A DNA stretch of 64,000 bases from Betaproteobacteria bacterium (GTDB lineage Bacteria > Pseudomonadota > Gammaproteobacteria > Burkholderiales > CAIKXV01). This document shows positions 23,991 through 51,738 of this stretch, piece by piece. How positions within the stretch are numbered: position 1 is the stretch's first letter; every line of letters begins with the position of its first letter. A program made the translations under genes and the position numbers. Below the pieces are notes generated by a model. It made no database searches, had not been told where the DNA came from, and saw only the letters and a list, made by a program, of their open reading frames with translations. The stretch covers positions 121,797 to 185,796 of the forward strand of contig CANGYF010000002.1 of the NCBI GenBank assembly GCA_947458265.1, in the 5' to 3' direction.

Positions 23991-24165
23991 CGATGCACTC
24001 CAATCGCGCCGTCGGGATGGCTGCGCGACCATGCATGCCGGCTTCAGGGGAACCATCCTGCCCCCCGGAGGTTACGCGTGACGACCGCGTTCCGGGAGCA
24101 ACAACGTCACGCTCGCGGCAAGGCGTTTTTCACGCTGGAACGGCACCGTCCGCGCCGCGCGCCCA

Positions 24166-25045: not shown

Positions 25046-26458
25046 TCAAGCAGCGCAGCGTGCCTCGATGTAGCGTTTCACCGCGTCGGTGTCCGCGTCC
25101 ATCACGTCGAACCGGCGCGGTGCGGACTCGAGGGCCTCGAACCCGGCCGGGCGCACGGGTGGTCGGCCGAGCGCCTCGACGATGGTCGCCTCGAACTTCA
25201 CCGGCAGCGCGGTCTCGAGGCAGACGATCTGCTCGCCCGGCTCGCGCAGCTCCAGCGCCACCTTGATGCCATCCGCGGTATGGGTATCGACGATGCGGCC
25301 GCAACCCTCGTAGGTACTGCGGATGGTGCGCAGCCGGTCGGCATGCGTGCTGTGCCCGGAGACGAACCCGGTATGCGCGACCTTCGAGAACTCGCCGCTG
25401 GCCGCAAGGTCGAACGATCCGCGTTCGTCGATCTCGCGCCACAGCGCGCGTACGCGATCCCCGTCGCCGCCGACCAGGTCGTACACATAGCGCTCGAAGT
25501 TCGAGGCCTTCGAGATATCCATCGACGGGCTGGAGGTCTGCCGGGTTTCCTGCGAGCTGCGCGGCCGGTAGGTACCGGTGCGGAAGAACTCGTCGAGCAC
25601 GTTGTTCTCGTTGGTGGCGAGGATCAGCCGCCGCACCGGCAGGCCCATCCGGCGTGCCACATGGCCGGCGCAGATGTTGCCGAAGTTGCCCGAGGGGACG
25701 CAGAACGACACCGCCTCGTCTTCGGAGCGGGTCGCCGCGAAGTAGCCCTTGAAGTAGTACACCACCTGGGCGACCAGCCGCGCCCAGTTGATCGAGTTGA
25801 CCGTGCCGATGCGAAGCCGCGACTTGAACGCGAGATCTGCGCTGACCGCCTTCACGATGTCCTGGCAATCGTCGAACACGCCACGGATCGCGATGTTGTG
25901 GATGTTCGGGTCCATCAGCGAGAACATCTGCGCCGTCTGGAACGGGCTCATCGCGCCATGCGGCGAGAGCATGAACACCCGGATGCCGTGCTTGCCGCGC
26001 ATCGCATACTCGGCGGCCGAGCCGGTGTCGCCCGAGGTGGCGCCCAGGATGTTGAGTGATTCGCCGCGCTCGGCCAGCACGAATTCGAACAGGTTGCCGA
26101 GCAGCTGCATCGCGACGTCCTTGAACGCCAGCGTCGGACCGTTGGAAAGCTGCAGCAGGTGCAGGCCAGGCTGCAGCGCGCTCATCGGAGTCACCGCGTC
26201 GGACCCGAACACCTCGGCGCGGTAGGTGCGCTCGACGATGGAACGCAGCGCCGCCGGCTCGATGTCGTCGATGAACAGCGAGAGGATCTCGAACGCGAGC
26301 GAGCGGTAGTCGAGGCCACGCCAGCGGGCCAGCATCGCCCGGTCGACCTGCGGGTACGATTCCGGCATCGCGAGCCCGCCGTCGGGCGCGAGCCCCTCGA
26401 GCAGGATCTCGCGGAAGCTCGCCGGCGCCATTGCGCCGCGGGTACTCAGGTAACGCAC
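25046..26458 (-). CDS. thrC: Threonine synthase
   Basis: YLSTRG, GLAPDGGL, GPTLAFKD (PLP Lys), ATSGDTG, NSINWAR, VPSGNFGN, SPSMDI. Confidence 0.97.
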   Translation of the reverse strand: MRYLSTRGAMAPASFREILLEGLAPDGGLAMPESYPQVDRAMLARWRGLDYRSLAFEILSLFIDDIEPAALRSIVERTYRAEVFGSDAVTPMSALQPGLHLLQLSNGPTLAFKDVAMQLLGNLFEFVLAERGESLNILGATSGDTGSAAEYAMRGKHGIRVFMLSPHGAMSPFQTAQMFSLMDPNIHNIAIRGVFDDCQDIVKAVSADLAFKSRLRIGTVNSINWARLVAQVVYYFKGYFAATRSEDEAVSFCVPSGNFGNICAGHVARRMGLPVRRLILATNENNVLDEFFRTGTYRPRSSQETRQTSSPSMDISKASNFERYVYDLVGGDGDRVRALWREIDERGSFDLAASGEFSKVAHTGFVSGHSTHADRLRTIRSTYEGCGRIVDTHTADGIKVALELREPGEQIVCLETALPVKFEATIVEALGRPPVRPAGFEALESAPRRFDVMDADTDAVKRYIEARCAA

Positions 26459-26461
26459 GGG

Positions 26462-27802
26462 CTACAGCTCTTCCAGGCGCAGCCGGGTCACGCGCCCGGA
26501 CACCGTCGCCAGCGCCTCGATGCTGGCGATCGCGGCATCCATGTTGTGCTCGATGGTGCGGTGGGTGAGCAGGATGATGTCGGCCTCGCTCTCGCCCGCC
26601 GCCGGCTCCTTCTGCACCATCGCATCGATGGAGATCTTCCGGTCGGCGAGGATGCGCGTGATGTCGGCGAGCACGCCCGGCTTGTCCTGCACCCGCATGC
26701 GCAGGTAGCAGGCGGTCTCGACGTCGGCGATCGGCAGGATGCGCAGGTTCGAGATGCGGTCGGGCTGGAACGCCAGGTGGGGCACCCGGTTCTCCGGGTC
26801 GACCGTCGCCAGCCGGGTGATGTCGACAAGGTCGGCGACCACCGCCGAGGCGGTTGGCTCGGAACCGGCACCGGCGCCGTAGTACATGGTCTGTCCGACA
26901 GCGTCGCCCTTCACCAGCACCGCGTTCATCACGCCTTCCACGTTCGCGATCAGCCGCTTCGCGGGGATCAGCGTCGGGTGCACGCGCAGCTCGATGCCGG
27001 CGGCATCGCCCTCGCCCACGCGCCGGGTGATGCCCAGAAGCTTGATCCGGTAGCCCAGTTCTTCAGCATAGCGGATGTCCTCGGCGGTGAGCTTCGTGAT
27101 GCCCTCGGTGTACGCACGCTCGAACTGCATCGGCACGCCGAAGGCAATCGCCGACATGATGGTGAGCTTGTGCCCGGCATCGATGCCCTCGATGTCGAAG
27201 GTCGGATCTGCCTCTGCATAGCCGAGCTTCTGCGCCTGCGCGAGCACCGTGTCGAACGCAAGCCCCTTGTCGCGCATCTCGGACAGGATGAAGTTGCTGG
27301 TGCCGTTGATGATGCCGGCGATCCATTCGATGCGGTTCGCGGTCAGGCCTTCGCGCAGCGCCTTGATGATCGGGATGCCGCCGCAGACCGCCGCCTCGAA
27401 CGCGACCATGACACCCTTCGCCTGCGCCGCGCCGAAGATCTCGTTGCCATGCAGCGCCAGCAGCGCCTTGTTCGCGGTGACCACGTGCTTGCCGTGGGCG
27501 ATCGCCTCGAGGATCAGGTCCTTCGCGACGCCGTAGCCGCCGATCAGTTCGACGACGATGTCGATCTCGGGGTCGCGCACCACCGAGAAGGCGTCGTCGA
27601 CCACGGTCGCCGGCGCCTCGCCTTCGACGGTGCATCCGGCCACCAGCGCGCGCGCGCGGGCAAGGTCCTTGTCTGCGACCCGGGTGATGCGGATGCCACG
27701 CCCCGCGCGTCGTTCAATCTCGTCACGGTTGCGCGCGAGCACCCCGAAGGTGCCCCCGCCGACGGTGCCGATGCCCAGCAGACCCACGTTGATCGGTTTC
27801 AT
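26462..27802 (-). CDS. hom: Homoserine dehydrogenase with ACT domain
   Basis: GLLGIGTVGGG, VVTANKA, EAAVCGGIP, NGTSNFIL, GYAEADP, C-terminal ACT (DKPGVLA). Confidence 0.97.
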   Translation of the reverse strand: MKPINVGLLGIGTVGGGTFGVLARNRDEIERRAGRGIRITRVADKDLARARALVAGCTVEGEAPATVVDDAFSVVRDPEIDIVVELIGGYGVAKDLILEAIAHGKHVVTANKALLALHGNEIFGAAQAKGVMVAFEAAVCGGIPIIKALREGLTANRIEWIAGIINGTSNFILSEMRDKGLAFDTVLAQAQKLGYAEADPTFDIEGIDAGHKLTIMSAIAFGVPMQFERAYTEGITKLTAEDIRYAEELGYRIKLLGITRRVGEGDAAGIELRVHPTLIPAKRLIANVEGVMNAVLVKGDAVGQTMYYGAGAGSEPTASAVVADLVDITRLATVDPENRVPHLAFQPDRISNLRILPIADVETACYLRMRVQDKPGVLADITRILADRKISIDAMVQKEPAAGESEADIILLTHRTIEHNMDAAIASIEALATVSGRVTRLRLEEL

Positions 27803-28998
27803 CAGAGCAGCCCATCCTTGCGGAACATCTCTTTCACGCCGCGCGTGGCCTGGCGGATGCGCGACTCGTTCTCGATCAGCGCCAGGCGCACATGGTCGTC
27901 GCCGTACTCGCCGAAGCCGATGCCGGGCGAGGCCGCGAGCCTGGCCTCTTCGAGCAGCTTCTTGGAGAACTCGAGCGAGCCCATCTTCGCGTACGGCTCC
28001 GGAATCTTCGCCCAGATGTACATCGCCGCCTTCGGCGACTCGACCATCCAGCCGGCCGCGTGCAGGCCCTGAACCATCACGTCGCGCCGCTTCTGGTAGG
28101 TCATCGCGATCTCGCGCACGCAGTCCTGCGGACCCTCGAGCGCGAGGATCGAGGCGATCTGGATCGGGGTGAATGTGCCGTAGTCGTGGTAGCTCTTCAT
28201 GCGCGCCAGCGCCGACACGAGGTCACGGTTGCCGACCATGAAGCCCACGCGCCAGCCGGCCATGTTGTAGCTCTTCGACATCGTGAAGAACTCGACCGCG
28301 ACGTCGCGCGCGCCGGGTACCTCCATGATCGAGGGCGCACGGTAGCCGTCGAAGGTGATGTCGGCATAGGCGAGATCGTGCACGACGTAGATGTCGTGCC
28401 GGCGCGCGATGTCGATGATCTTCTCGAAGAACGGCAGGTCGACGCACTGGCTGGTCGGGTTCGACGGGAAGTTCAGGATCAGCATCTTCGGCTTCGGGTA
28501 CGACTCCTTCATCGCACGGTCGAGTTCGTCGAAGAAGTCCACCCCTGGCGTCATCCGCACGTGGCGGATGTCGGCGCCCGCGATCACCGGGCCGTAGATG
28601 TGGATCGGGTAGCTGGGGTTGGGCACCAGCACGATATCGCCGCGGTCGAGGGTCGCCAGCGCCAGGTGCGCGATGCCTTCCTTCGAGCCGATGGTGACGA
28701 TCGCCTCGCTGTCCGGGTCGAGTTCGACGCCGTAGCGGGTCTGGTACCAGTTGCAGATGGCCTTGCGCAGCCGGGGGATACCCTTGGACACCGAGTAGCC
28801 GTGGGTATCCGGTCGCTGCGCCGCCTCGACCAGCTTGGCGACGATGTGCGGCGGCGTCGGGCCGTCCGGATTGCCCATCGACAGGTCGATGATGTCCTCG
28901 CCCCGGCGGCGGGCGGCCATCTTCAGCTCCGCCGTGATGTTGAACACGTACGGGGGAAGGCGTCGGATGCGGGCGAATTCTTCCATCTGTTCAGTCAC
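27802..28998 (-). CDS. alaC: Alanine transaminase (class I/II aminotransferase)
   Basis: [36 protein letters not shown]; upstream of hom-thrC. Confidence 0.92.
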
Positions 28999-29099
28999 CT
29001 GGCACCGCGACAGCTCGCCGGCGGCACATTGTGGAAAGCCGTCGAGTTTACCCGAGGCAACCGCCGCGCGCGGCGCGGCGGTTGCCGGCCTGCCCCGGG

Positions 29100-29960
29100 T
29101 CAGCCGCCGAACTCGGCCGTCGCGCTGAGCGCCACCGCTCCGGTGTCGTCCTCCGCCCAGAGCTTCGCGCTGCGCCCGTCCGGCGCAGGCTCGCCGCAGA
29201 GGGTGATCGCCCGGTTGACGAACAGCGGCCGCACGTTGCGCGACGCCATGTAGCGCAGCGGGCTGCCGGCGTTCGCGCGCGCCAGTTCGAACACCAGCAG
29301 GGTGGTCAGCCCGCCGTTCATCACCAGGGTCGGATAGCCCTCGGTGCCGGTCACGTACGGGTGGTCGTAGTGGATGCGATGGCCGTTGAAGGTAAGCGCC
29401 GAATAGCGGAACAGCATGACCGGATCCGGCGTCACGACCTGCTTCCAGACCGCCGTTCCCGGAGCGGGCACCGGCGCCGCTGCCGGCTTCGGCGCCGCCG
29501 GATCGGGCTCTTCCCGGTAGACGATGTCCTGCTCCTCGACCACGGCAAGGCCGCGCGGGCTGGAAATCTCGGTACGCACGGTCACGAACACCATCTGTCC
29601 GGACTTGCCCACCTTCGGCGTCACGCTCTGGATCACCGACTCCCGCTTCACTTCGTCGCCGACCCGCAGTTCGCCCTCGAACGTGATGCGCTTGCCTGCG
29701 AACATGCGGCGCGGCAACGGCACTGGCGGCAGGAAATCGCCGCGCTGCGGGTGGCCGTCCGGCCCGATCTGCGACTGCCGCACCACGCGCGGGAACAGGA
29801 TCGAATGCCAGCCGATCGGCAGCGGGTCACCGTCCTTCGGACGCGGATCGTCGCGATCCAGCGTGCAGGACAGTCGGTGCACCGAGGGCACGGTCACGTA
29901 GTCGATGTCGGATTCGCGGTTGCCGATCCACTCGGCGAGGCGGTCGAGGTCCTGCGTCAT
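29100..29960 (-). CDS. Double hot-dog acyl-CoA hydratase, itaconyl-/mesaconyl-CoA hydratase-like
   Basis: [48 protein letters not shown] motifs. Confidence 0.85.
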
Positions 29961-30011
29961 GTATTCCTCCTGGGATGCCGGTCGAGTACGCGGGACGACC
30001 GGACCGGCCTG

Positions 30012-30026
30012 GAACCGTAACGGTTC
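30012..30026. promoter_or_regulatory. Perfect palindrome GAACCGT-A-ACGGTTC, putative operator
   Basis: 7-bp arms with a 1-bp centre, upstream of both the hydratase gene and the candidate sRNA promoter. Confidence 0.55.
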
Positions 30027-30036
30027 GTTTCAGTGC

Positions 30037-30065
30037 TTGCGGATCGTACACCGGAGGCGAATACT
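30037..30065 (+). promoter_or_regulatory. Putative sigma70 promoter TTGCGG-N17-AATACT
   Basis: -35 at 30037-30042, 17-bp spacer, -10 at 30060-30065, A at 30072 as likely +1. Confidence 0.5.
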
Positions 30066-30071
30066 GGCGTC

Positions 30072-30137
30072 ATTGCGGTCGCGGCCAGCGACGCAAGCAG
30101 CTTCAGCCGGAAGGGGTGACCCTGCCGGCTGTTTTTT
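30072..30137 (+). ncRNA. Candidate ~66-nt small RNA (5' hairpin, short linker, terminator)
   Basis: Promoter immediately upstream; hairpin TTGCgGTCGC/GCGACGCAA; terminator hairpin plus T6, on the strand opposite to both flanking genes. Confidence 0.55.
30104..30137 (+). terminator. Rho-independent terminator
   Basis: CAGCCGGaAGGG-gtga-CCCTgCCGGCTG followed by TTTTTT. Confidence 0.8.
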
Positions 30138-30159
30138 GGGACCGGGCGGGCTCGCGCGC

Positions 30160-31119
30160 CTACTCGACGGCGATGCCGGCGTTGCGGATGAGCGCACCCC
30201 AGTAGGCCAGCTCCTGGGCGATCGTCTTCGCGAACGTCGCCGGATCCTGGTACTGCGCGAATGCCCCCTGCGAATCGGCCTTTTCGCGGAACTCCCGGCC
30301 TTCGACGATGCGCCGGACCTCGTCGGACAGCCGCTTCACCACCTCCGGCGACAGGCCAGCCGGCCCCAGCAGCCCGAACCAGGAGGCCACTTCGTATTTC
30401 GGGAAGCCCGCCTCCGCCGCGGTCGGCACCGTGGGCATCGACGGATGCCGGTTGCGCGCCGCATAGGCGATCGCACGCAGCTTGCCGGCCTGCACCTGCT
30501 GGATCACGCCCGGCGGCGTGGTAATGAAGATGTCGATGTTGCCGCCCATCAGGTCGACCACGGCCGGTCCGCTGCCCTTGTAGGGCACGTGGATCATCTT
30601 CCCGCCCGCCTGCTGCTCCAGGATCTCGCCGGACAGATGCTGGATGGACCCGGCACCGGAGGAGCCGTAGCTGATCTTGCCCGGGTTTGCCCGGACCAGC
30701 TCGACCAGTTCCTTCATCGTCGTGACCCGGGTCGACGGCCCGACGGCAATCACCTGCGGTGCGTACAGGGCCATCGCGATCGGAGTGAAATCCTTGACCG
30801 GATCCCACTTCAGCCCCTTGAACAGGTGCGGGTTGCCGACATGGAAGCCGGAGAACTGCAGCAGCAGGGTGTGGCCGTCCGGCTTGGCCCGGGCGACCAG
30901 CTCGGTGCCGATGTTGCCCGAGGCACCGCCGCGGTTCTCGACCAGCACCGGCTGGCCGAGTGCCTTCGACAGCGGCTCCTGCAGCAGCCGTGCCGTGAAG
31001 TCGGTGGAACCACCGGGTACGGTGGGGACGATCATCGTCACCGGCCGCGACGGGAACGATTGCGCAGCCGCCACCGTGGACAGGCCGAGCATCGCGCCAA
31101 CGAGAATCCGCTTCATCAT
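30160..31119 (-). CDS. Bug/TctC substrate-binding protein
   Basis: Signal peptide, FPSRPV, ENRGGASG, PDGHTLL, HVPYKG. Confidence 0.93.
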   Translation of the reverse strand: MMKRILVGAMLGLSTVAAAQSFPSRPVTMIVPTVPGGSTDFTARLLQEPLSKALGQPVLVENRGGASGNIGTELVARAKPDGHTLLLQFSGFHVGNPHLFKGLKWDPVKDFTPIAMALYAPQVIAVGPSTRVTTMKELVELVRANPGKISYGSSGAGSIQHLSGEILEQQAGGKMIHVPYKGSGPAVVDLMGGNIDIFITTPPGVIQQVQAGKLRAIAYAARNRHPSMPTVPTAAEAGFPKYEVASWFGLLGPAGLSPEVVKRLSDEVRRIVEGREFREKADSQGAFAQYQDPATFAKTIAQELAYWGALIRNAGIAVE

Positions 31120-31529
31120 GGGTACTCCTCCGATTTCAGGTACTCCGATATCTCGATGAGGTTGAGGTCCGGGTCGCGAACGTAGACCGATCGGATGCGC
31201 CCGGTCGCACCGGTCCGCGGCCCCGGCCCCTCCTCGATCGGCACGCCGGCCGCCTGCAGTCGCTCGATCACGGTGTCCAGAGGCAGCGCGGCAATGAAGC
31301 ACAGGTCGAGCGCGCCCGGCACAGGCAGGTGCGCCTTCGGCTCGAACTCGCCGCCCTTCACATGCAGGTTGATCTTCTGGTTGCCGAAGCGGAAGGCCAC
31401 GCGGCCCTGCGGCAGCTCGGGCGTGACGCCGAAACGCTCGAGCTGCATGCCGAGCACCCGCGTGTAGAAGTCGATCGCTCGCCCGGCATCGGTAGTGGTC
31501 AGCACCAGATGGTCGAGATGGTCGATCAT
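31116..31529 (-). CDS. VOC/glyoxalase family protein
   Basis: IDHLDHLVLT, FYTRVLGM, QKINLH, DLCF, RTGATG.IRSVYVRDPDLNLIEIS. Confidence 0.92.
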   Translation of the reverse strand: MIDHLDHLVLTTTDAGRAIDFYTRVLGMQLERFGVTPELPQGRVAFRFGNQKINLHVKGGEFEPKAHLPVPGALDLCFIAALPLDTVIERLQAAGVPIEEGPGPRTGATGRIRSVYVRDPDLNLIEISEYLKSEEYP

Positions 31530-32521
31530 GCAGCCGCCGGTGCAGACGTTCCAGCAGCGGCGCGTGCACGCGCCTGCGCCACCGAGGCCGGCACCGGGTG
31601 CAGGTCGAGGCGCTGGCCGGCCTTCACTACCTGCCCTGGCAGCTCGTGGCCCACCAGAACACCGAGCCGGCGCGCACAGTCGAGCAGCTCCGGCAGGTCG
31701 ATGCCGGTGGCACGGCCTTCGAGCACCAGCATGTGCACCAGGTCTTCGGTGCAGACGTTGCCGGTCGCCCCGGGTGCATACGGACAGCCGCCCAGGCCAC
31801 CCAGCGAGGCATCGAACCGGTCGACCCCGGCATGCAGCGCGGCCAGCGCATTGGCGAGCCCCATGCCGCGCGTGTTGTGAACATGCAGGGTGAGCATCGC
31901 CTGCGGGAAGCGTGCGCGGAAGTCGCGGCACAGCCCGGCCACCTGCGACGGATAGGCCATGCCGGTGGTGTCGCACAGCGTCACCCCCCGCGCGCCGGCA
32001 TCAAGGAAGGTCGCGGCGAAGTCGAGTACCGTCGTCGCCGGCACCTCGCCTTCCATCGGACAGCCGAAGCTGCAGGACAACGACACGTTGGCCGGCACGC
32101 GCGCCTCCGTGGACAGGCGGATCACCTCGAGCAACTGTGCAACCGAGCCGGCGCGCGTCATGCGCAGGTTGGCCAGGTTGTGCGTCTCCGAGCAGGACAT
32201 CACCAGGTTGAATTCGTCCGGTGGCGCCGCCAGCGCGCGCTCGACGCCGCGCACGTTGGGCACCAGCACGGTGTACTCGACGCCAGGCACGCGCTCGATC
32301 CGGCGCATCACCTCGTCGGCGTCGGCCAGCATCGGGATCGCCTTCGGCGAGGTGAACGAGGTCACCTCGATCTTCGCCAGCCCGGTCCGCGACAGCGCGT
32401 CGACGAAGGCGACCTTGTCGTCCGTGGGCACAAACACCGCCTCGGCCTGCAGGCCGTCGCGCATCGCCACGTCCTGGATGAAAACGCGCGCCGGGGCAAC
32501 GCGGGCAGGGACATCCATCAT
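31526..32521 (-). CDS. HMG-CoA lyase family acyl-CoA lyase
   Basis: RDGLQ, EVTSF, DTTG, HVHNTRG, GGLGGCPYAPGATGNV.TED. Confidence 0.92.
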   Translation of the reverse strand: MMDVPARVAPARVFIQDVAMRDGLQAEAVFVPTDDKVAFVDALSRTGLAKIEVTSFTSPKAIPMLADADEVMRRIERVPGVEYTVLVPNVRGVERALAAPPDEFNLVMSCSETHNLANLRMTRAGSVAQLLEVIRLSTEARVPANVSLSCSFGCPMEGEVPATTVLDFAATFLDAGARGVTLCDTTGMAYPSQVAGLCRDFRARFPQAMLTLHVHNTRGMGLANALAALHAGVDRFDASLGGLGGCPYAPGATGNVCTEDLVHMLVLEGRATGIDLPELLDCARRLGVLVGHELPGQVVKAGQRLDLHPVPASVAQARARAAAGTSAPAAA

Positions 32522-33774
32522 TCAACCTCTCCGCCGGTATCGATCACCTTCTTCGCCGCGAGTTCGGCGATTGCCGCCTCGCTGATGCCCAGTTCGCGCA
32601 GCACCTGTGCCGTATGCAGGCCGAGCGCCGGTGCCAGCGTCGACAGGCGGCCGGGCGTCGCGGACAGCTTCGGCACCACGCCGGGGACATCGAGTTCATG
32701 GCCTTCTGCGGTGGTGATGCGCTGGATCATCCCGCGCGCACGATAGTGCGGATCCTCCGCGATGTCGCGCGCGGTGTAAATACGCCCGGCGGGCACACGT
32801 GCGCGCGTCAGGCCGTCGAGCACCTCGGCCAGCGGCAGCGTCGCCGTCCATGCGCCGATCGCGGCATCGAGTTCGGCCGCTCGCTTCGCGCGTCCGTCGT
32901 TGGACGCAAGGTCGGGCGCATCGCGCAGGTCGGGCCGGCCGATCAGGTCCATCAGCCGACGGTAGATGCTGTCGCCGTTGCCGCCGATCAGCACCGCGCC
33001 ATCGGCACAGCGGTAGGCATTGCTCGGCGCGATGCCCGGCAGCGCACTGCCCGCGGGTTCGCGCACCGCACCGAACGCGCTGTACTCGGGCAGCAGGCTC
33101 TCCATGCAGTTGAACACCGCTTCGTACAGGGCCACGTCGACCACCTGGCCCCTGCCCGCTTCCCCCGACGCCTTGCGATGGTAGAGCGCGAGCAGCACGC
33201 CGATCACACCGTGCAGCGCCGCCAGCGTGTCGCCGATCGACACGCCCACGCGCACCGGCAGCCGTCCGGGTTCACCGGACAGGTGGCGCAGCCCGCCCAT
33301 CGCCTCGGCGATCACGCCGAACCCCGGGCGGTCGGCATAGGGACCATCCTGGCCGTAGCCGGAGATGCGCAGCATGACCAGGCCGGGATTGCGTGCGGCC
33401 AGCGCCTCGTAGCCGAGGCCCCAGCCTTCCAGCGTACCCGGCTTGAAATTCTCGATCACGACGTCGGCCTCGTCTGCCAGCCGGCCGCAGAGTTCCTGCC
33501 CCTCGGCCGAGCGCAGGTCGAGGGCCACCGAACGCTTGTTGCGCGACTGCACCTGCCACCAGACGGAAGTGCCGTCCTTGAGCATCCGCCACTTGCGCAG
33601 GGGATCGCCGCTGCCCGGTGGCTCGACCTTGATCACGTCGGCGCCGAAGTCGGCCAGCATCTTTCCAGCGAAAGGACCGGCGATCAGCTGGCCGAGTTCG
33701 AGCACCCGCAGGCCCTGCAGCGGCAATGTGGCGGGTGTACCGTCCGACCCGTGGCGAGGATGACTGTCTGACAT
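32518..33774 (-). CDS. Class III CoA-transferase (CaiB/BaiF)
   Basis: IAGPFAG, GADVIKVE, RNKRSVALDL, ISGYGQDGPY, SIGDTLA. Confidence 0.93.
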   Translation of the reverse strand: MSDSHPRHGSDGTPATLPLQGLRVLELGQLIAGPFAGKMLADFGADVIKVEPPGSGDPLRKWRMLKDGTSVWWQVQSRNKRSVALDLRSAEGQELCGRLADEADVVIENFKPGTLEGWGLGYEALAARNPGLVMLRISGYGQDGPYADRPGFGVIAEAMGGLRHLSGEPGRLPVRVGVSIGDTLAALHGVIGVLLALYHRKASGEAGRGQVVDVALYEAVFNCMESLLPEYSAFGAVREPAGSALPGIAPSNAYRCADGAVLIGGNGDSIYRRLMDLIGRPDLRDAPDLASNDGRAKRAAELDAAIGAWTATLPLAEVLDGLTRARVPAGRIYTARDIAEDPHYRARGMIQRITTAEGHELDVPGVVPKLSATPGRLSTLAPALGLHTAQVLRELGISEAAIAELAAKKVIDTGGEVE

Positions 33775-33856
33775 CGTGGGACCATGCCTTGTTCCGACCC
33801 GGGCAAGCGTACCACCGTGTGGCAGGCAACCGTGCCAGGCTGCCCCGGCCCGGCGG

Positions 33857-35623
33857 TTACTCGTCGCCGGCGAGCAGCACCCGGTTGCGACCCTTGCGCT
33901 TGGCCTCGTACATCGCCTCGTCCGCGCGCGCCAGCGCCTGTGCACCGGTCTCCCCCGGGCGCATGCGGGCCACGCCCGCGCTGAAGGTGATCAGCACCTT
34001 CTCGTTGTTGTGCAGGAAGAACTGCCGGGTCAGTTCCCGCTGCAGCCGCTGGACCACCACGCGTGCATCCTCGACCGGCGTCTCGGGCAGCAGCAGGACG
34101 AACTCCTCGCCGCCGTAGCGGCCAATGGTGTCCGACGGACGCAGCATCGAGCGCACCACTGCCACGAGGTGGCGCAGGGCCCCGTCGCCCGCCTGGTGGC
34201 CGAGCCGGTCGTTGAGCTTCTTGAAGTGGTCGAGGTCGATCACGGTGAAGCACAACGACGATCGGTAGCGCTGCGCGCGCGCAACCTCCCGCTCGACCGC
34301 CTCGTCCAGCCCGCGCCGGTTCAGCGCACCGGTCAGCGCGTCCTCGCGCAGCGCCGCGCTCACGCGCGCCAGTTCTGCCTCCAGCTCGGCGACCTTCGCC
34401 CGCGCGCGCTCGGCGTGCTCGCCAACGCCGAGCACCTGGTCGCGCGATCGGGTCGCGTCGACCTGCATCCTGCGCATGTCGACCATCAGGTCGTCGAGCA
34501 GGTCGCGCAGTCCATTCACGTTGTCGGTGACCCGCACCCGCTCGGTGTAGCCGACGATGCGTGCCTGGTAGACGACCGCGCTTTGCGCCATCTCGCCGAC
34601 GCGTTCGACGAACACGCCGATCAGCTCCTTCAACGTGCGCTTCATCTCGCGCAGCGCATCCTTGAGCGCCCGCTGCCGTTCGACGGTCTCCCGGAACTGC
34701 GCCTGAGCATCGGCCAGCGTACGCGAACTCGGCGGCTGCTCCACGGTACGCTCGAGCAGTTGCACCTGCCCCGCCACCCAGCGATCGTCGTCGACCAGTT
34801 CCGCCAGGTTGGACACCAGCATGCGCACCAGCGCCATCGAATCCTCGACGATCAGCCGTTGCTCGACCTGCACCAGCTCCGCCTCGCGCAGCGCATGGCC
34901 GATCGCCGTGTCGATCGCGGCGCAATCGGCCGGGGTCGCGGCCGCGCGCACCAGCGGCGGCAGCCGGGCGACAGTACCCGCCAGCCGCGGGTAGTCGGAC
35001 ACGCGCGGCGCCAGTTCGCGCTCGAACACGGCCGCCAGCAGTTCGCGCAGCGTGTGCGCCAGGTCTTCGACAATCGGCAGCAGCGTCACGCCAGCCGCAG
35101 GCCCTTTCATCGCGGCGATGCCGTTGAATACCGGAGCATCCCGCCAGGCGGCGGGCGCAGGCGCCGCCGCGCCATCGGTGGCTTCCGGCGTCCCGGCAGC
35201 CTCGGCCGCATCGACCAGCAGCGCCCCTGGCGCCGAGGGCAGCGCCTCGCCCCATGCCTTCGTGAGCGCAGCCAGCTTCTCGCCGAGCTGCGGCGAGCGG
35301 CGGAAGCTGATCAGCAGCCGCTCGAGCCCGTCCCGCTTCTGGGTGAGCGACACGCCGGCATGGCGCAACTCGAGCTGGCGCATCAGGTCTCTGATGACCT
35401 GCGACCAGTCGGTCGCATCCGGCTCGCCTGCGGCGGCCGACGGCGCGGCAGGCAGGACCGGGACGGCCGAGGTGCCCGAGATCTCGGCATAGACCAGGAC
35501 GTAGTTCTCCGGCGTAGGCGCGATACGGCGCGACGCGAGCAGCTTCAGGGTTTCGCGGGCGAGTTCCCCCGGCGTGCGGACGGTCATGGACGGACGGGAC
35601 GACGGTACGGATTCAGGTGGCAT
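33857..35623 (-). CDS. Cytoplasmic diguanylate cyclase (coiled coil plus GGDEF)
   Basis: PTPENY N-terminus, DALTGALNRR, DLDHFKKLND..GH, RPSD I-site, GGEEF. Confidence 0.92.
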   Translation of the reverse strand: MPPESVPSSRPSMTVRTPGELARETLKLLASRRIAPTPENYVLVYAEISGTSAVPVLPAAPSAAAGEPDATDWSQVIRDLMRQLELRHAGVSLTQKRDGLERLLISFRRSPQLGEKLAALTKAWGEALPSAPGALLVDAAEAAGTPEATDGAAAPAPAAWRDAPVFNGIAAMKGPAAGVTLLPIVEDLAHTLRELLAAVFERELAPRVSDYPRLAGTVARLPPLVRAAATPADCAAIDTAIGHALREAELVQVEQRLIVEDSMALVRMLVSNLAELVDDDRWVAGQVQLLERTVEQPPSSRTLADAQAQFRETVERQRALKDALREMKRTLKELIGVFVERVGEMAQSAVVYQARIVGYTERVRVTDNVNGLRDLLDDLMVDMRRMQVDATRSRDQVLGVGEHAERARAKVAELEAELARVSAALREDALTGALNRRGLDEAVEREVARAQRYRSSLCFTVIDLDHFKKLNDRLGHQAGDGALRHLVAVVRSMLRPSDTIGRYGGEEFVLLLPETPVEDARVVVQRLQRELTRQFFLHNNEKVLITFSAGVARMRPGETGAQALARADEAMYEAKRKGRNRVLLAGDE

Positions 35624-35726
35624 GCGTGTTGCGCGGTCGACGGCAGGAAGGTGGGGCCATGCCGCGCATCCATCGGCGATCGGGCGCCGGCGCCGAAAGA
35701 CGAAGGGTAGCAGACAGCCCGGCGCA

Positions 35727-37112
35727 TCACCGGCGCGCGCGCCAGCTGCGCGCCTGCACGCCGGCGGCCACCAGCAGGCCGTACAAGGCCAGCCCGGTCG
35801 CCACCGCTGCGAACACGCCCGGCAGGCCGAGCCCGAGGGGGCCCGCAGCCTGCGCACCGCCACCCGCCGCGCAGGCGATGCGCGCGATCGCGGCGGCAAA
35901 CGGCCAGCGCATGCGCCCGGCACCCTGGCTCGCGAAGTACAGGGCCATGCCCAGGCCGAGCAGCGCATAGGCCGGGCCGATGATGCGCAGGGCCAGCCGT
36001 GCGATGCGCGCCACCTCCGGATCGGCGGTGAACAGCCCGATCCACGCGTCCGGGAACAGCGCCGCCGCCAGGCCGATCGCGGCACAGGCGGCGCATACGA
36101 CCCATGCGCCGCGCCAGGCCAGCGCCAGCGCTAGCGACCATTCGCCGGCACCGACGCGGCGCCCGACCCGCTGGGTCAGCGTCGCACCGATGCCGAACGA
36201 CAGCGGAACCATCAGGAATTCCAGCCGGGCCGCGATGCCCCAGGCGGCGATCGCCGCCGGACCGAACCCGGAGATCAGCGCGGTGACCGCGACCGTGGTC
36301 AGCACCGCCAGCGTCGCCATCGCCGAAGCGACGACACCCACCGACAGGATGCGCATGAACAGCTCGCCGCGCAGCGGGCCCCACAGCCGCGGCACGAAGC
36401 CACAGCCACCCGCCATCACGTTGCGCAGCAGGAAGCCTGCCGTGACCGCGAACACGATGCAGTAGGCGACCGGCAGTCCGATGATGCCCAGGGCCGGCAA
36501 CGGCCCGAAACCGAACATCAGCGCCGCGCCGAGCACCGGTTGGACCAGCCAGGCGATGGCGATCAGGCGGGCCGGCATCGCCATCACCCCGGCACCGCGC
36601 AGCACCGAGGCCAGCGTCGCCACCAGCCATTGCAGCGGCACGCCGACGAACAGCACGCTCGAATAGAGCACGGCCGTGTCGAGCACCGTGCCGCGCGCGC
36701 CGATCGCCTCGAAGAGCTGCCGTCCGCCCAGTTCCATCGCCGCGAAGAACAGCAGCCCGAGCCCGCCGCCGATCAGCAGTGCATGCCGGATCAACGCAGC
36801 CGCTTCGTCCTGCCGCCCGGCCCCGAGCGTACGCGCCACCGCCGAACTCACGCCGCCACCCATCGCACCGGTGGACATCATGTTCATCAGCAGCGCGAAC
36901 GGCAGCACCAGCGCATAGGCCGCCAGCGCCTCGGTGCCGAACCGCCCGACCAGTGCGGTCTCGGCGATCAGCGCGCCAACCTGCGCGAAGCCGACCAGCG
37001 TGGTCGGCAGCGACTGGCGCAGCAGCGGCCCGACCCGCTCGTCGGCAGCACCGTCCGCCCTCTCCCTGCCGCCAGCTGCACCGGAGGCCATGGCTGGCGA
37101 TCGGCCGGTCAA
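35727..37112 (-). CDS. MATE family efflux transporter
   Basis: About 12 hydrophobic segments, VGRFGTEALA, GAMGGGVSSAVAR.LGAG, RLEFLMVP; TTG start overlaps the upstream stop (alternative ATG 37092). Confidence 0.88.
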   Translation of the reverse strand: MTGRSPAMASGAAGGRERADGAADERVGPLLRQSLPTTLVGFAQVGALIAETALVGRFGTEALAAYALVLPFALLMNMMSTGAMGGGVSSAVARTLGAGRQDEAAALIRHALLIGGGLGLLFFAAMELGGRQLFEAIGARGTVLDTAVLYSSVLFVGVPLQWLVATLASVLRGAGVMAMPARLIAIAWLVQPVLGAALMFGFGPLPALGIIGLPVAYCIVFAVTAGFLLRNVMAGGCGFVPRLWGPLRGELFMRILSVGVVASAMATLAVLTTVAVTALISGFGPAAIAAWGIAARLEFLMVPLSFGIGATLTQRVGRRVGAGEWSLALALAWRGAWVVCAACAAIGLAAALFPDAWIGLFTADPEVARIARLALRIIGPAYALLGLGMALYFASQGAGRMRWPFAAAIARIACAAGGGAQAAGPLGLGLPGVFAAVATGLALYGLLVAAGVQARSWRARR

Positions 37113-37966
37113 CGCGCGGGCGACATCCGGAAATCGAACTCGACCAGCGCGAACGGGTTGGGCAGGCGATGGCGCGCAGCCTCTTCCGGCGCATCGCGCG
37201 TCACGAACGGCACCGCGAGCGAGGCGCGCACCCCGAACACCGCGTCCTGTTCGATGTAGGGGTCATCGGCCGGGAACAGCTCGGTGGTGAGCGGTGCGAA
37301 GCCATCGGCCAGCACCCGGAAGTGGAAGTGCGCCGGACGCCAGGCGTGCCGTCCGCCGGCGCGCAGCAGTCCGCCCACCGGACCATCGTACGGGACCGTA
37401 TAGGGCGCGGGCCGCACCGTGGTGAACGCGTAGACGCCGTCGTCGCCGAGTGGCATCCGGAAGCGCAGGTTGTCAGGGCTCTGGGTCGGATCCTGCTGCC
37501 AGTAGTGCCCGAGGGCATTGGTCTGCCAGAAATCGATCGTCGCGCCGCGCACCGGCCGCCCCTCGAGGTCGAGCACCCGTCCCCGGACCAGCACCGGCGG
37601 GCCGGCGTTGTCACGGATCAGGTCGCCGCCGACCGGCAGCATCGGCGACCCCTCGGCGTGGAAGGGCCCGAGCACGCTGCGCTCGGTCGCGCCGGGCACG
37701 CCCTGCAGCAGGTCGGTCAGCGAGGTCAGACCGAGGATGTCGGAGGCCAGCACGAACTCGTTGCGCTTGTCGTCGGTGATCGCCGCCGCCGCGGTGAGGA
37801 ACGCAATGCCGGCACGCCATTCCTCGGGCCTGAGTTCGACCTCGCGTGCAAACGCGTGCAGGTGGCGCACCAGCGCGCCGATCACTTCCTTCATGCGCGG
37901 ATCACCGGCGCCTTCGAACGAAGCGATGACGGCATCGGTCAGGGTATTGCGGTCGATACCTTGCAT
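37109..37966 (-). CDS. Intradiol ring-cleavage dioxygenase (hydroxyquinol/catechol 1,2-dioxygenase type)
   Basis: LHAFAREV, SDILG, VLGPF, DFWQ...GHY, PAPY.VPYDGP.G, WRPAHFHF (Tyr/Tyr/His/His iron ligands). Confidence 0.9.
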   Translation of the reverse strand: MQGIDRNTLTDAVIASFEGAGDPRMKEVIGALVRHLHAFAREVELRPEEWRAGIAFLTAAAAITDDKRNEFVLASDILGLTSLTDLLQGVPGATERSVLGPFHAEGSPMLPVGGDLIRDNAGPPVLVRGRVLDLEGRPVRGATIDFWQTNALGHYWQQDPTQSPDNLRFRMPLGDDGVYAFTTVRPAPYTVPYDGPVGGLLRAGGRHAWRPAHFHFRVLADGFAPLTTELFPADDPYIEQDAVFGVRASLAVPFVTRDAPEEAARHRLPNPFALVEFDFRMSPAR

Positions 37967-37990
37967 AGGTCGCCTCACGGACTCAGGAAT

Positions 37991-38022
37991 CGGCACGGAT
38001 CGGGGTCTGACCCCAGGGTCAG
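37991..38022. repeat. Partial REP-like element (GGGGTCTGACCCC core)
   Basis: Shares CGGCACGG..ATCGGGGTCTGACCC with the element at 50889-50967. Confidence 0.6.
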
Positions 38023-51510: not shown

Positions 51511-51738
51511 GGTGTTCGCTCCTCGCTTGGTTCGTGATCGATGATCGATAGTAGTGTGCCGTCGCGCGTGAAGGCAACCGCGCGGCCTTTTTTCCGCATG
51601 GCAGCCTTCGCATGCGCGCTCCGGCGCCGCTGCTGCCGCTACTGCCGTAATATCGTGGCCTTTCCTGATGTGATCACAACGCTACCCGGCCGGCACCGGC
51701 GACGGAGACAGGTGCCAAACACGCAAGGAAGATCCCCG

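Follow-up and report, generated by a model that had tools for sequence, protein, structure and literature searches.

A candidate small-RNA gene on the strand opposite its neighbours, restricted to one uncultured freshwater genus of the Burkholderiales

Introduction

What is a 122-base block, in which a promoter-like motif is combined with two hairpins and a terminator, doing in a gap between two genes that are both read from the other strand? The block lies within a 64,000-nt stretch of DNA (the window, on which all coordinates below are given) from a member of an uncultured freshwater genus of the Burkholderiales. An earlier note, made from the letters alone, had read it as an unannotated trans-acting small RNA of about 66 nt with Hfq-type architecture. 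Since small RNAs usually come to light through experiments with cultured strains, hardly any, to our knowledge, have been described from uncultured freshwater bacteria. Comparative genomics is the sole basis of the present candidate, for which there is a covariance model as well as a set of definite predictions: a plus-strand RNA of about 66 nt whose ends lie near 30072 and 30137.

In this article, we draw on comparisons among related genomes, on structure prediction, on homology searches and on public RNA libraries to ask which strand of the block is likely to be transcribed, what it may encode and how such an RNA could act. Our answer, read from sequence, is that the block is probably a free-standing small-RNA gene on the plus strand, restricted to the genus and ordinary in its architecture; the case for its being more than chance rests mainly on conservation. 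If true, this would add a genus-specific regulator beside genes of organic-acid catabolism and uptake, and would mean that promoter-plus-terminator units can be recognised by eye in raw sequence, while leaving our understanding of how such RNAs work unchanged.

The locus and its neighbours

The block occupies a 199-nt intergenic gap (29961-30159) flanked by two minus-strand genes. On one side lies a FAS1_DH/MaoC-like hydratase gene (29100-29960; Pfam PF13452, E 1.3e-10), from which the block diverges, and on the other a TctC/Bug solute-binding protein gene (30160-31140, start approximate; Pfam PF03401, E 2e-69), whose stop lies at 30160 and on which the predicted RNA converges. Upstream of TctC the minus strand carries an HMG-CoA-lyase-like gene and a family III CoA-transferase gene, and downstream of the hydratase it carries genes for a class I/II aminotransferase and a homoserine dehydrogenase. 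The minus-strand order over 26462-33945 is accordingly CoA-transferase, HMG-CoA-lyase-like, TctC, element, MaoC-like hydratase, aminotransferase and homoserine dehydrogenase, and the first three genes of this series resemble a CoA pathway for an organic acid together with the protein for its uptake.

We compared the locus with 14 other species-level genomes of the genus. A hydratase ortholog adjoins every copy of the block that was examined. In six relatives (G004, G006, G008, G010, G012 and G014) a segment of about 1.8 kb stands between the T-run that closes the block and the TctC stop; it is absent from the source genome and from G002, G003, G011 and G013. The one copy of this segment that was read (G006, L033:443-2238) holds a minus-strand gene for a methyl-accepting chemotaxis protein of 508 aa. 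The segment begins on its left where the T-run ends, in the place taken here by 30138-30159, and since it lies beyond the T-run, the element travels with the hydratase side of the locus. In G005 the element is missing and the TctC stop lies about 40 nt from the hydratase ATG (L020:1460-1510), an arrangement in which, to judge from the spacing, the two genes look operonic. A hydratase tree leaves G005 at its base and does not resolve whether this genome lost the element or never had it.

Anatomy of the block

Each element that the earlier note had named was found again, base for base, when the plus strand was re-read. A -35-like hexamer, TTGCGG (30037-30042), agrees with TTGACA at three of six positions and is followed by a 17-nt spacer (30043-30059) and a -10-like hexamer, AATACT (30060-30065); the putative start is a purine, the A at 30072, 7 nt after the -10. 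The predicted small RNA would run from there to about 30137, roughly 66 nt, both ends being taken from motifs and fold and the 3' end lying in the T-run. It comprises hairpin 1 (30073-30096), with nine pairs, one bulged G and a GGCCA loop; a 7-nt linker, GCAGCUU (30097-30103), which is unpaired in both the single-sequence and the consensus folds and is a candidate seed; hairpin 2 (30104-30131), a GC-rich terminator stem of -21 kcal/mol; and a T6 tract (30132-30137) that directly abuts hairpin 2.

The computed fold reproduces the hairpin-linker-hairpin arrangement that had been drawn by eye. At -34 kcal/mol (z -3.4), the predicted 66-nt plus-strand RNA is more stable than chance would suggest, none of 200 shuffles folding as well. 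In a scan of the whole 4.0-Mb genome, hairpin 2 with its T6 ranks 11th by energy among 159 sites at which a hairpin is followed by T5, and 5th among the 47 with T6 or more. Consensus promoter and terminator scans reported no site in the block: the terminator escapes because its inner loop breaks the rule of the scan, and the promoter because, with 7 of 12 consensus positions, it falls below the threshold. The pattern TTGC-N19-AATACT occurs three times in the 4.0-Mb genome, each time in an intergenic position.

Two further features lie around the promoter-like motif. A CGTAAC box (30016-30021), 15 nt upstream of the -35, is a possible regulator site; it is enclosed by a perfect 15-bp palindrome, GAACCGTAACGGTTC (30012-30026), whose centre lies about 53 nt before the predicted start. 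The full palindrome recurs in G010, the remaining copies retaining CGTAAC alone, and the hexamer itself is invariant in a 12-row alignment but altered in L061 (CGAAAC), G001 and G009. The palindrome may be a regulator site serving divergent promoters. The second feature is ATCGTA at 30043-30048, inside the spacer of the plus-strand promoter, which reads TACGAT on the minus strand. Of 17 copies, 16 preserve this minus-strand motif in the form TAnnAT (TAGGAT in G009 and TAGCAT in G001), and G013 has lost it; the motif may mark a divergent hydratase promoter that overlaps the one proposed here. No conserved -35 to partner it was found in the aligned copies, and inspection of the block by eye gave no fit to a sigma-54 promoter or to a sigma-70 promoter on the minus strand.

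Conservation and covariation within the genus

Of the 14 other genomes of the genus, 12 carry the block, and in each it points away from the hydratase ortholog. Copies in ten of the 14 were found by blastn, and those in G001 and G009 were added, at 57-59 bits, by a covariance model built from 12 copies; of the two genomes in which no copy was counted, G005 lacks the element and G007 has a contig that ends inside the hydratase. The block is single-copy in its own genome, where all other blastn matches score 34 bits or less and the covariance model has one match. G010 holds two nearly identical copies (L016 and L021, on contigs C95 and C264); since that genome is listed with 8% contamination, the bin may contain two strains.

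In eight near relatives, the copies share 86-97% of bases with that of the source genome over the span from -35 to T-run; for the hydratase, the same eight comparisons give identities of 71-75% at third codon positions and of 95-97% at positions one and two. Four more distant copies are 60-69% identical over the element, which is about the level of third codon positions; the motifs and the pairing persist nonetheless. Conservation ends right after the T-run, alignments to the relatives breaking off at 30137-30150, that is, 0-13 nt beyond it, and at the opposite end, the interval separating the block from the hydratase ATG is variable in both sequence and length.

The copies were placed in an alignment of 17 rows, fitted to the covariance model and comprising 16 distinct sequences. 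TTGC is found in all 17 rows and GAATACT in 16, the exception being G002 with GAATCAC, and the 17-nt spacing is constant in G013, G001 and G009 despite their different spacers. The 6-nt discriminator that follows the -10 is variable and the base after it is a purine in every row. The invariant single-stranded parts are the loop GGCCA and, in 17 of 17 rows, the GCAG(C/U)U of the linker. A T-run of T5-T7 abuts hairpin 2 in all 17 rows (T6 in 11, T7 in four and CT5 in two). The G002 copy (L014:1498-1622) combines a -35 of TTGCAG and a -10 of AATCAC with a plus-strand hairpin 2 that has two mismatches; this may be a decaying copy, and joint damage to the -10 and to hairpin 2 would fit a block that works as one functional unit.

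The pairing is preserved as well. Across the 16 distinct sequences of the model-fitted alignment, 97.2% of cells form standard pairs and six pairs, in 16 cells, have changed on both sides; none of 500 shuffles reaches the covariation score, and slid controls contain 0-2 pairs with changes on both sides. An independent MAFFT alignment of 12 copies gives five such pairs in seven cells, again with none of 500 shuffles as high. Double changes occur in two pairs of hairpin 1 (U-A to C-G in G002 and G004, and G-C to A-U in G003) and in four pairs of hairpin 2 (for example, A-U to G-C in G011 and C-G to G-C in G013), and the inner stem of hairpin 2 has been swapped wholesale in G011, G013, G001 and G009 with its pairing retained. 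The comparison in related genomes that the earlier note had called for thus finds the block kept throughout the genus, with covariation in both hairpins. As regards the claim itself, the unannotated plus-strand unit of about 66 nt gains support from genus-wide conservation that stops at the T-run, from the covariation of both hairpins and from the retention of the hexamers and their spacing; the trans mode of action attached to it is a more tentative matter, to which we return below.

The transcribed strand

The choice of strand is the weakest part of the case. Two arguments of the earlier note withstood re-examination. The T-tract is on the wrong strand to end the Bug operon, for the minus strand continues beyond the hairpin as AAGCUGCUUGCG, with no U-tract; and no plus-strand coding sequence requires the terminator, since none precedes hairpin 2 and the downstream alternatives are both on the minus strand. 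Folding favours the plus strand in nine of 12 copies and the minus strand in three (G004, G011 and G013), and the consensus fold is better on the plus strand (-33.3 against -30.1). The wobble pairs are ambiguous, with 7-9 G.U cells that pair on the plus strand only and about five C.A cells that turn into G.U when the minus strand is read. From these folds, from the T-run that abuts the hairpin in every copy and from the fit of the promoter footprint, we infer that the plus strand is probably the one transcribed.

Orientation alone proves little here: by our own crude gene calls, 34 hairpins with a T-run lie within 150 nt after a co-oriented gene genome-wide, and 15, that at 30104-30137 included, lie on the opposite strand no more than 150 nt beyond the stop of a convergent gene. 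Some of the 14 others could be further orphan RNA genes. Within the window, a plus-strand hairpin of the form GCCGTCGCGCG...CGCGCGGC-C-T6 lies at 51557-51593, and a weaker plus-strand hairpin with T5 at 24086-24130, each in a gap beside minus-strand genes.

These counts bear on another explanation, namely that the block is a terminator or insulator and nothing else, separating the hydratase, aminotransferase and homoserine dehydrogenase genes from the catabolic/TctC (or chemoreceptor) genes, with any plus-strand RNA a functionless by-product. The wrong-strand layout shared, on crude gene calls, with 14 other sites in the genome would fit such a role, as would the distance of hairpin 2 from the convergent stop (22 nt past that of TctC here, and 28 nt past that of the chemoreceptor in G006) and the start of variable gene content exactly at the T-run. 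A bidirectional intrinsic terminator, however, has an A-run before its hairpin and a T-run after it, so that both strands carry a U-tract, and we set this assignment aside for the block, whose minus strand reads AAGCUGCUUGCG at that point. Moreover, conservation is no lower in hairpin 1, the linker and the hexamers than in the terminator, with covariation, and a plain terminator would need none of these parts. We consider a pure terminator or insulator improbable.

The main rival to a plus-strand gene is a cis element of the minus strand, in which the hairpins would form part of the hydratase mRNA, either in its 5' untranslated region or between cistrons, and no separate plus-strand RNA would exist. 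Stem-loops at 5' ends protect mRNAs, and RNase E cuts single strands rich in A and U; in one version of this explanation, read-through transcripts would be cut in the A6 run, and the stem-loop left at the 5' terminus would protect the hydratase message. In its favour are the three copies that fold better on the minus strand and the C.A cells noted above, as well as G005, in which the short distance between TctC and the hydratase would permit a single transcription unit. That same genome, however, does without the element. A minus-strand element also leaves unexplained why TTGC and GAATACT are held 17 nt apart while the spacer between them changes, and why the 6 nt before hairpin 1 vary freely; the part nearest the ribosome-binding site is the least conserved; and upstream of 30137 on the minus strand there is no promoter-like sequence, in a flank that is itself unconserved. 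On balance we regard a minus-strand element as unlikely, and the free-standing plus-strand gene as the better account of the hexamers and their spacing.

Evidence from RNA libraries

The block is present in RNA libraries. We compared the region 29400-30700 (1301 nt) with unstranded contigs assembled from two metatranscriptome runs of two studies, one of lake water and one of freshwater. In one run (X1), a 187-nt contig covers 29951-30137 with three differences and ends on the last T, and a second contig covers 30113-30148, crossing the T-run, before continuing into unlike sequence. In the other (X2), a 218-nt contig covers 30086-30280, passing through the terminator, with insertions after 30151. 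In both runs there was no cover over 29400-29927 or over most of 30281-30700, which says nothing about the expression of the genes there.

These contigs can be read in more than one way. The 187-nt contig is far longer than 66 nt and takes in the supposed promoter; reaching from the A/T-run at 30137 to 29951, just inside the hydratase start, it fits the 5' end of a minus-strand transcript equally well. Its end at 30137 may also be a break in the assembly, because that is exactly where the species diverge. As unstranded contigs, the libraries therefore give a weak hint of a discrete RNA.

Families and homologs

The earlier note had not recognised the RNA family, and the database agrees: Rfam 15 gave no match within 30000-30160 at E values up to 10 (29700-30500 scanned) and no gathering-level match in the whole 64,000-nt window. 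A full-text literature search found nothing on this candidate RNA. Neither the covariance model, run on 151 genomes of the order, nor pattern scans found a credible copy outside the genus. Eight genomes outside it gave matches of 20-36.5 bits with the model, and we do not count these as homologs; the seven alignments that were read cover mostly the terminator hairpin, and the best-scoring match, in G108, is the terminator of a plus-strand gene (GGCCGGAAGGGGAAACCCUUCCGGCC-U7).

A pattern scan of genome contigs returned nine loci, all in records titled as uncultured Burkholderiales or Betaproteobacteria MAGs except two, one titled Bordetella parapertussis and one 'uncultured bacterium'. A looser pattern returned at least 119 loci, and when the model was applied to 80 of these only four genus copies scored. 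In metagenomes the pattern was found at 43 loci, three of them real copies.

Other kinds of element were considered and rejected. A repeat or mobile element of the REP or MITE type was set aside, blastn and the covariance model both finding only one copy. A 76-aa open reading frame on the plus strand (29975-30205) has no Pfam hit, runs past the end of conservation and is broken by a 1-nt insertion in G004, and a leader or riboswitch would require a plus-strand gene to follow, which none does; Rfam gave no match either. Taken together, the chance that the block is something of this sort (the end of a repeat or mobile element, a small protein gene or a plus-strand leader) seems very slight: the chemoreceptor gene does come and go exactly at the T-run, and the 76-aa frame does span the site, but the single copy, the state of that frame, the missing downstream gene and the silence of Rfam all speak against it.

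A possible mode of action

How, then, would a free-standing plus-strand RNA be made and what might it do? Transcription would start at about A30072 from a sigma-70-type promoter, TTGCGG-N17-AATACT. The transcript would fold into the bulged 9-bp hairpin, the 7-nt linker GCAGCUU and a strong intrinsic terminator, and would end in the U-run at about 30137, giving an RNA of roughly 66 nt. It would act by base pairing through the invariant linker and the loop of hairpin 1, probably with the help of Hfq, and its 3' half could in addition pair in cis with minus-strand transcripts that run through the gap.

The linker is the part that we take, from its invariance and its unpaired state, to be the likely seed of a base-pairing small RNA. 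Assistance by Hfq is probable given the presence of an hfq gene in the genome (an 81-aa open frame at G000:C4:70444-70629 that matches PF17209 with 104 bits); a ProQ/FinO domain was looked for and not found in the genome, which is 97% complete. In the Hfq-binding small RNAs of E. coli, the terminator is described as ending in at least seven T residues (PMC5558911). The T6 tail of the candidate is shorter than in this rule for E. coli.

Searches for targets in trans gave no outlier, either by exact complementarity or by a rough scan of duplexes. At 68% GC this genome is rich in exact complements of 12-15 nt, and those inspected lie inside coding sequences or at gene ends. The translation-start regions of the Bug gene and its catabolic neighbours are not preferred partners in the crude duplex scan, which used approximate starts: those of ten genes at 25046-37996 rank from 398 to 2528 among 2949. 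That action in trans is the main mode, as the earlier note had it, seems to us somewhat less likely than not. A role in cis is possible as well, because the gene converges on TctC, so that the 3' half of the RNA is complementary to minus-strand read-through.

The various readings can also be joined. The small-RNA gene could have been set antisense into a former operon of CoA-transferase, HMG-CoA-lyase-like, TctC and hydratase genes, of the kind that is still contiguous in G005, and could act both in cis and in trans. Convergent transcription and the terminator would then uncouple the hydratase and amino-acid genes from the catabolic genes upstream, the plus-strand promoter would compete with a hydratase promoter through the overlapping TAnnAT, and the boundary at the T-run would be a recurrent insertion point for the chemoreceptor gene. 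As a whole, this composite carries little probability in our judgement, and the simpler free-standing gene is the reading that we prefer.

Comparison with known systems

With respect to the Hfq-associated trans-acting small RNAs of Proteobacteria, of which SgrS and RyhB are named as examples in PMC5558911, the predicted RNA has the same general design: it is short and intergenic, with a predicted promoter of its own, it begins with a hairpin and has a conserved unpaired stretch, and it closes with a GC-rich intrinsic terminator and a U tail. It departs from them in that its linker, GCAGCUU, is not U-rich or A/U-rich and its tail is T6 (T5-T7 among the copies) rather than seven or more.

Hairpin 2 and its T-run look like the ordinary intrinsic terminators that the covariance model picked up behind genes in other families of the Burkholderiales, such as the one in G108, whereas the block has, upstream of this terminator, a conserved promoter-like motif and a second hairpin in place of a coding gene.

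Finally, cis-antisense RNAs and convergent transcripts that overlap at their 3' ends are a known class. The predicted RNA resembles them in that it converges on the TctC or chemoreceptor gene and would be fully complementary to any minus-strand transcript that crosses the gap, and one unstranded contig does cross it, at 30086-30280, over the region of the would-be overlap. It differs from them in its company, for the constant neighbour of the block is the divergent hydratase gene and not the gene on which the RNA converges.
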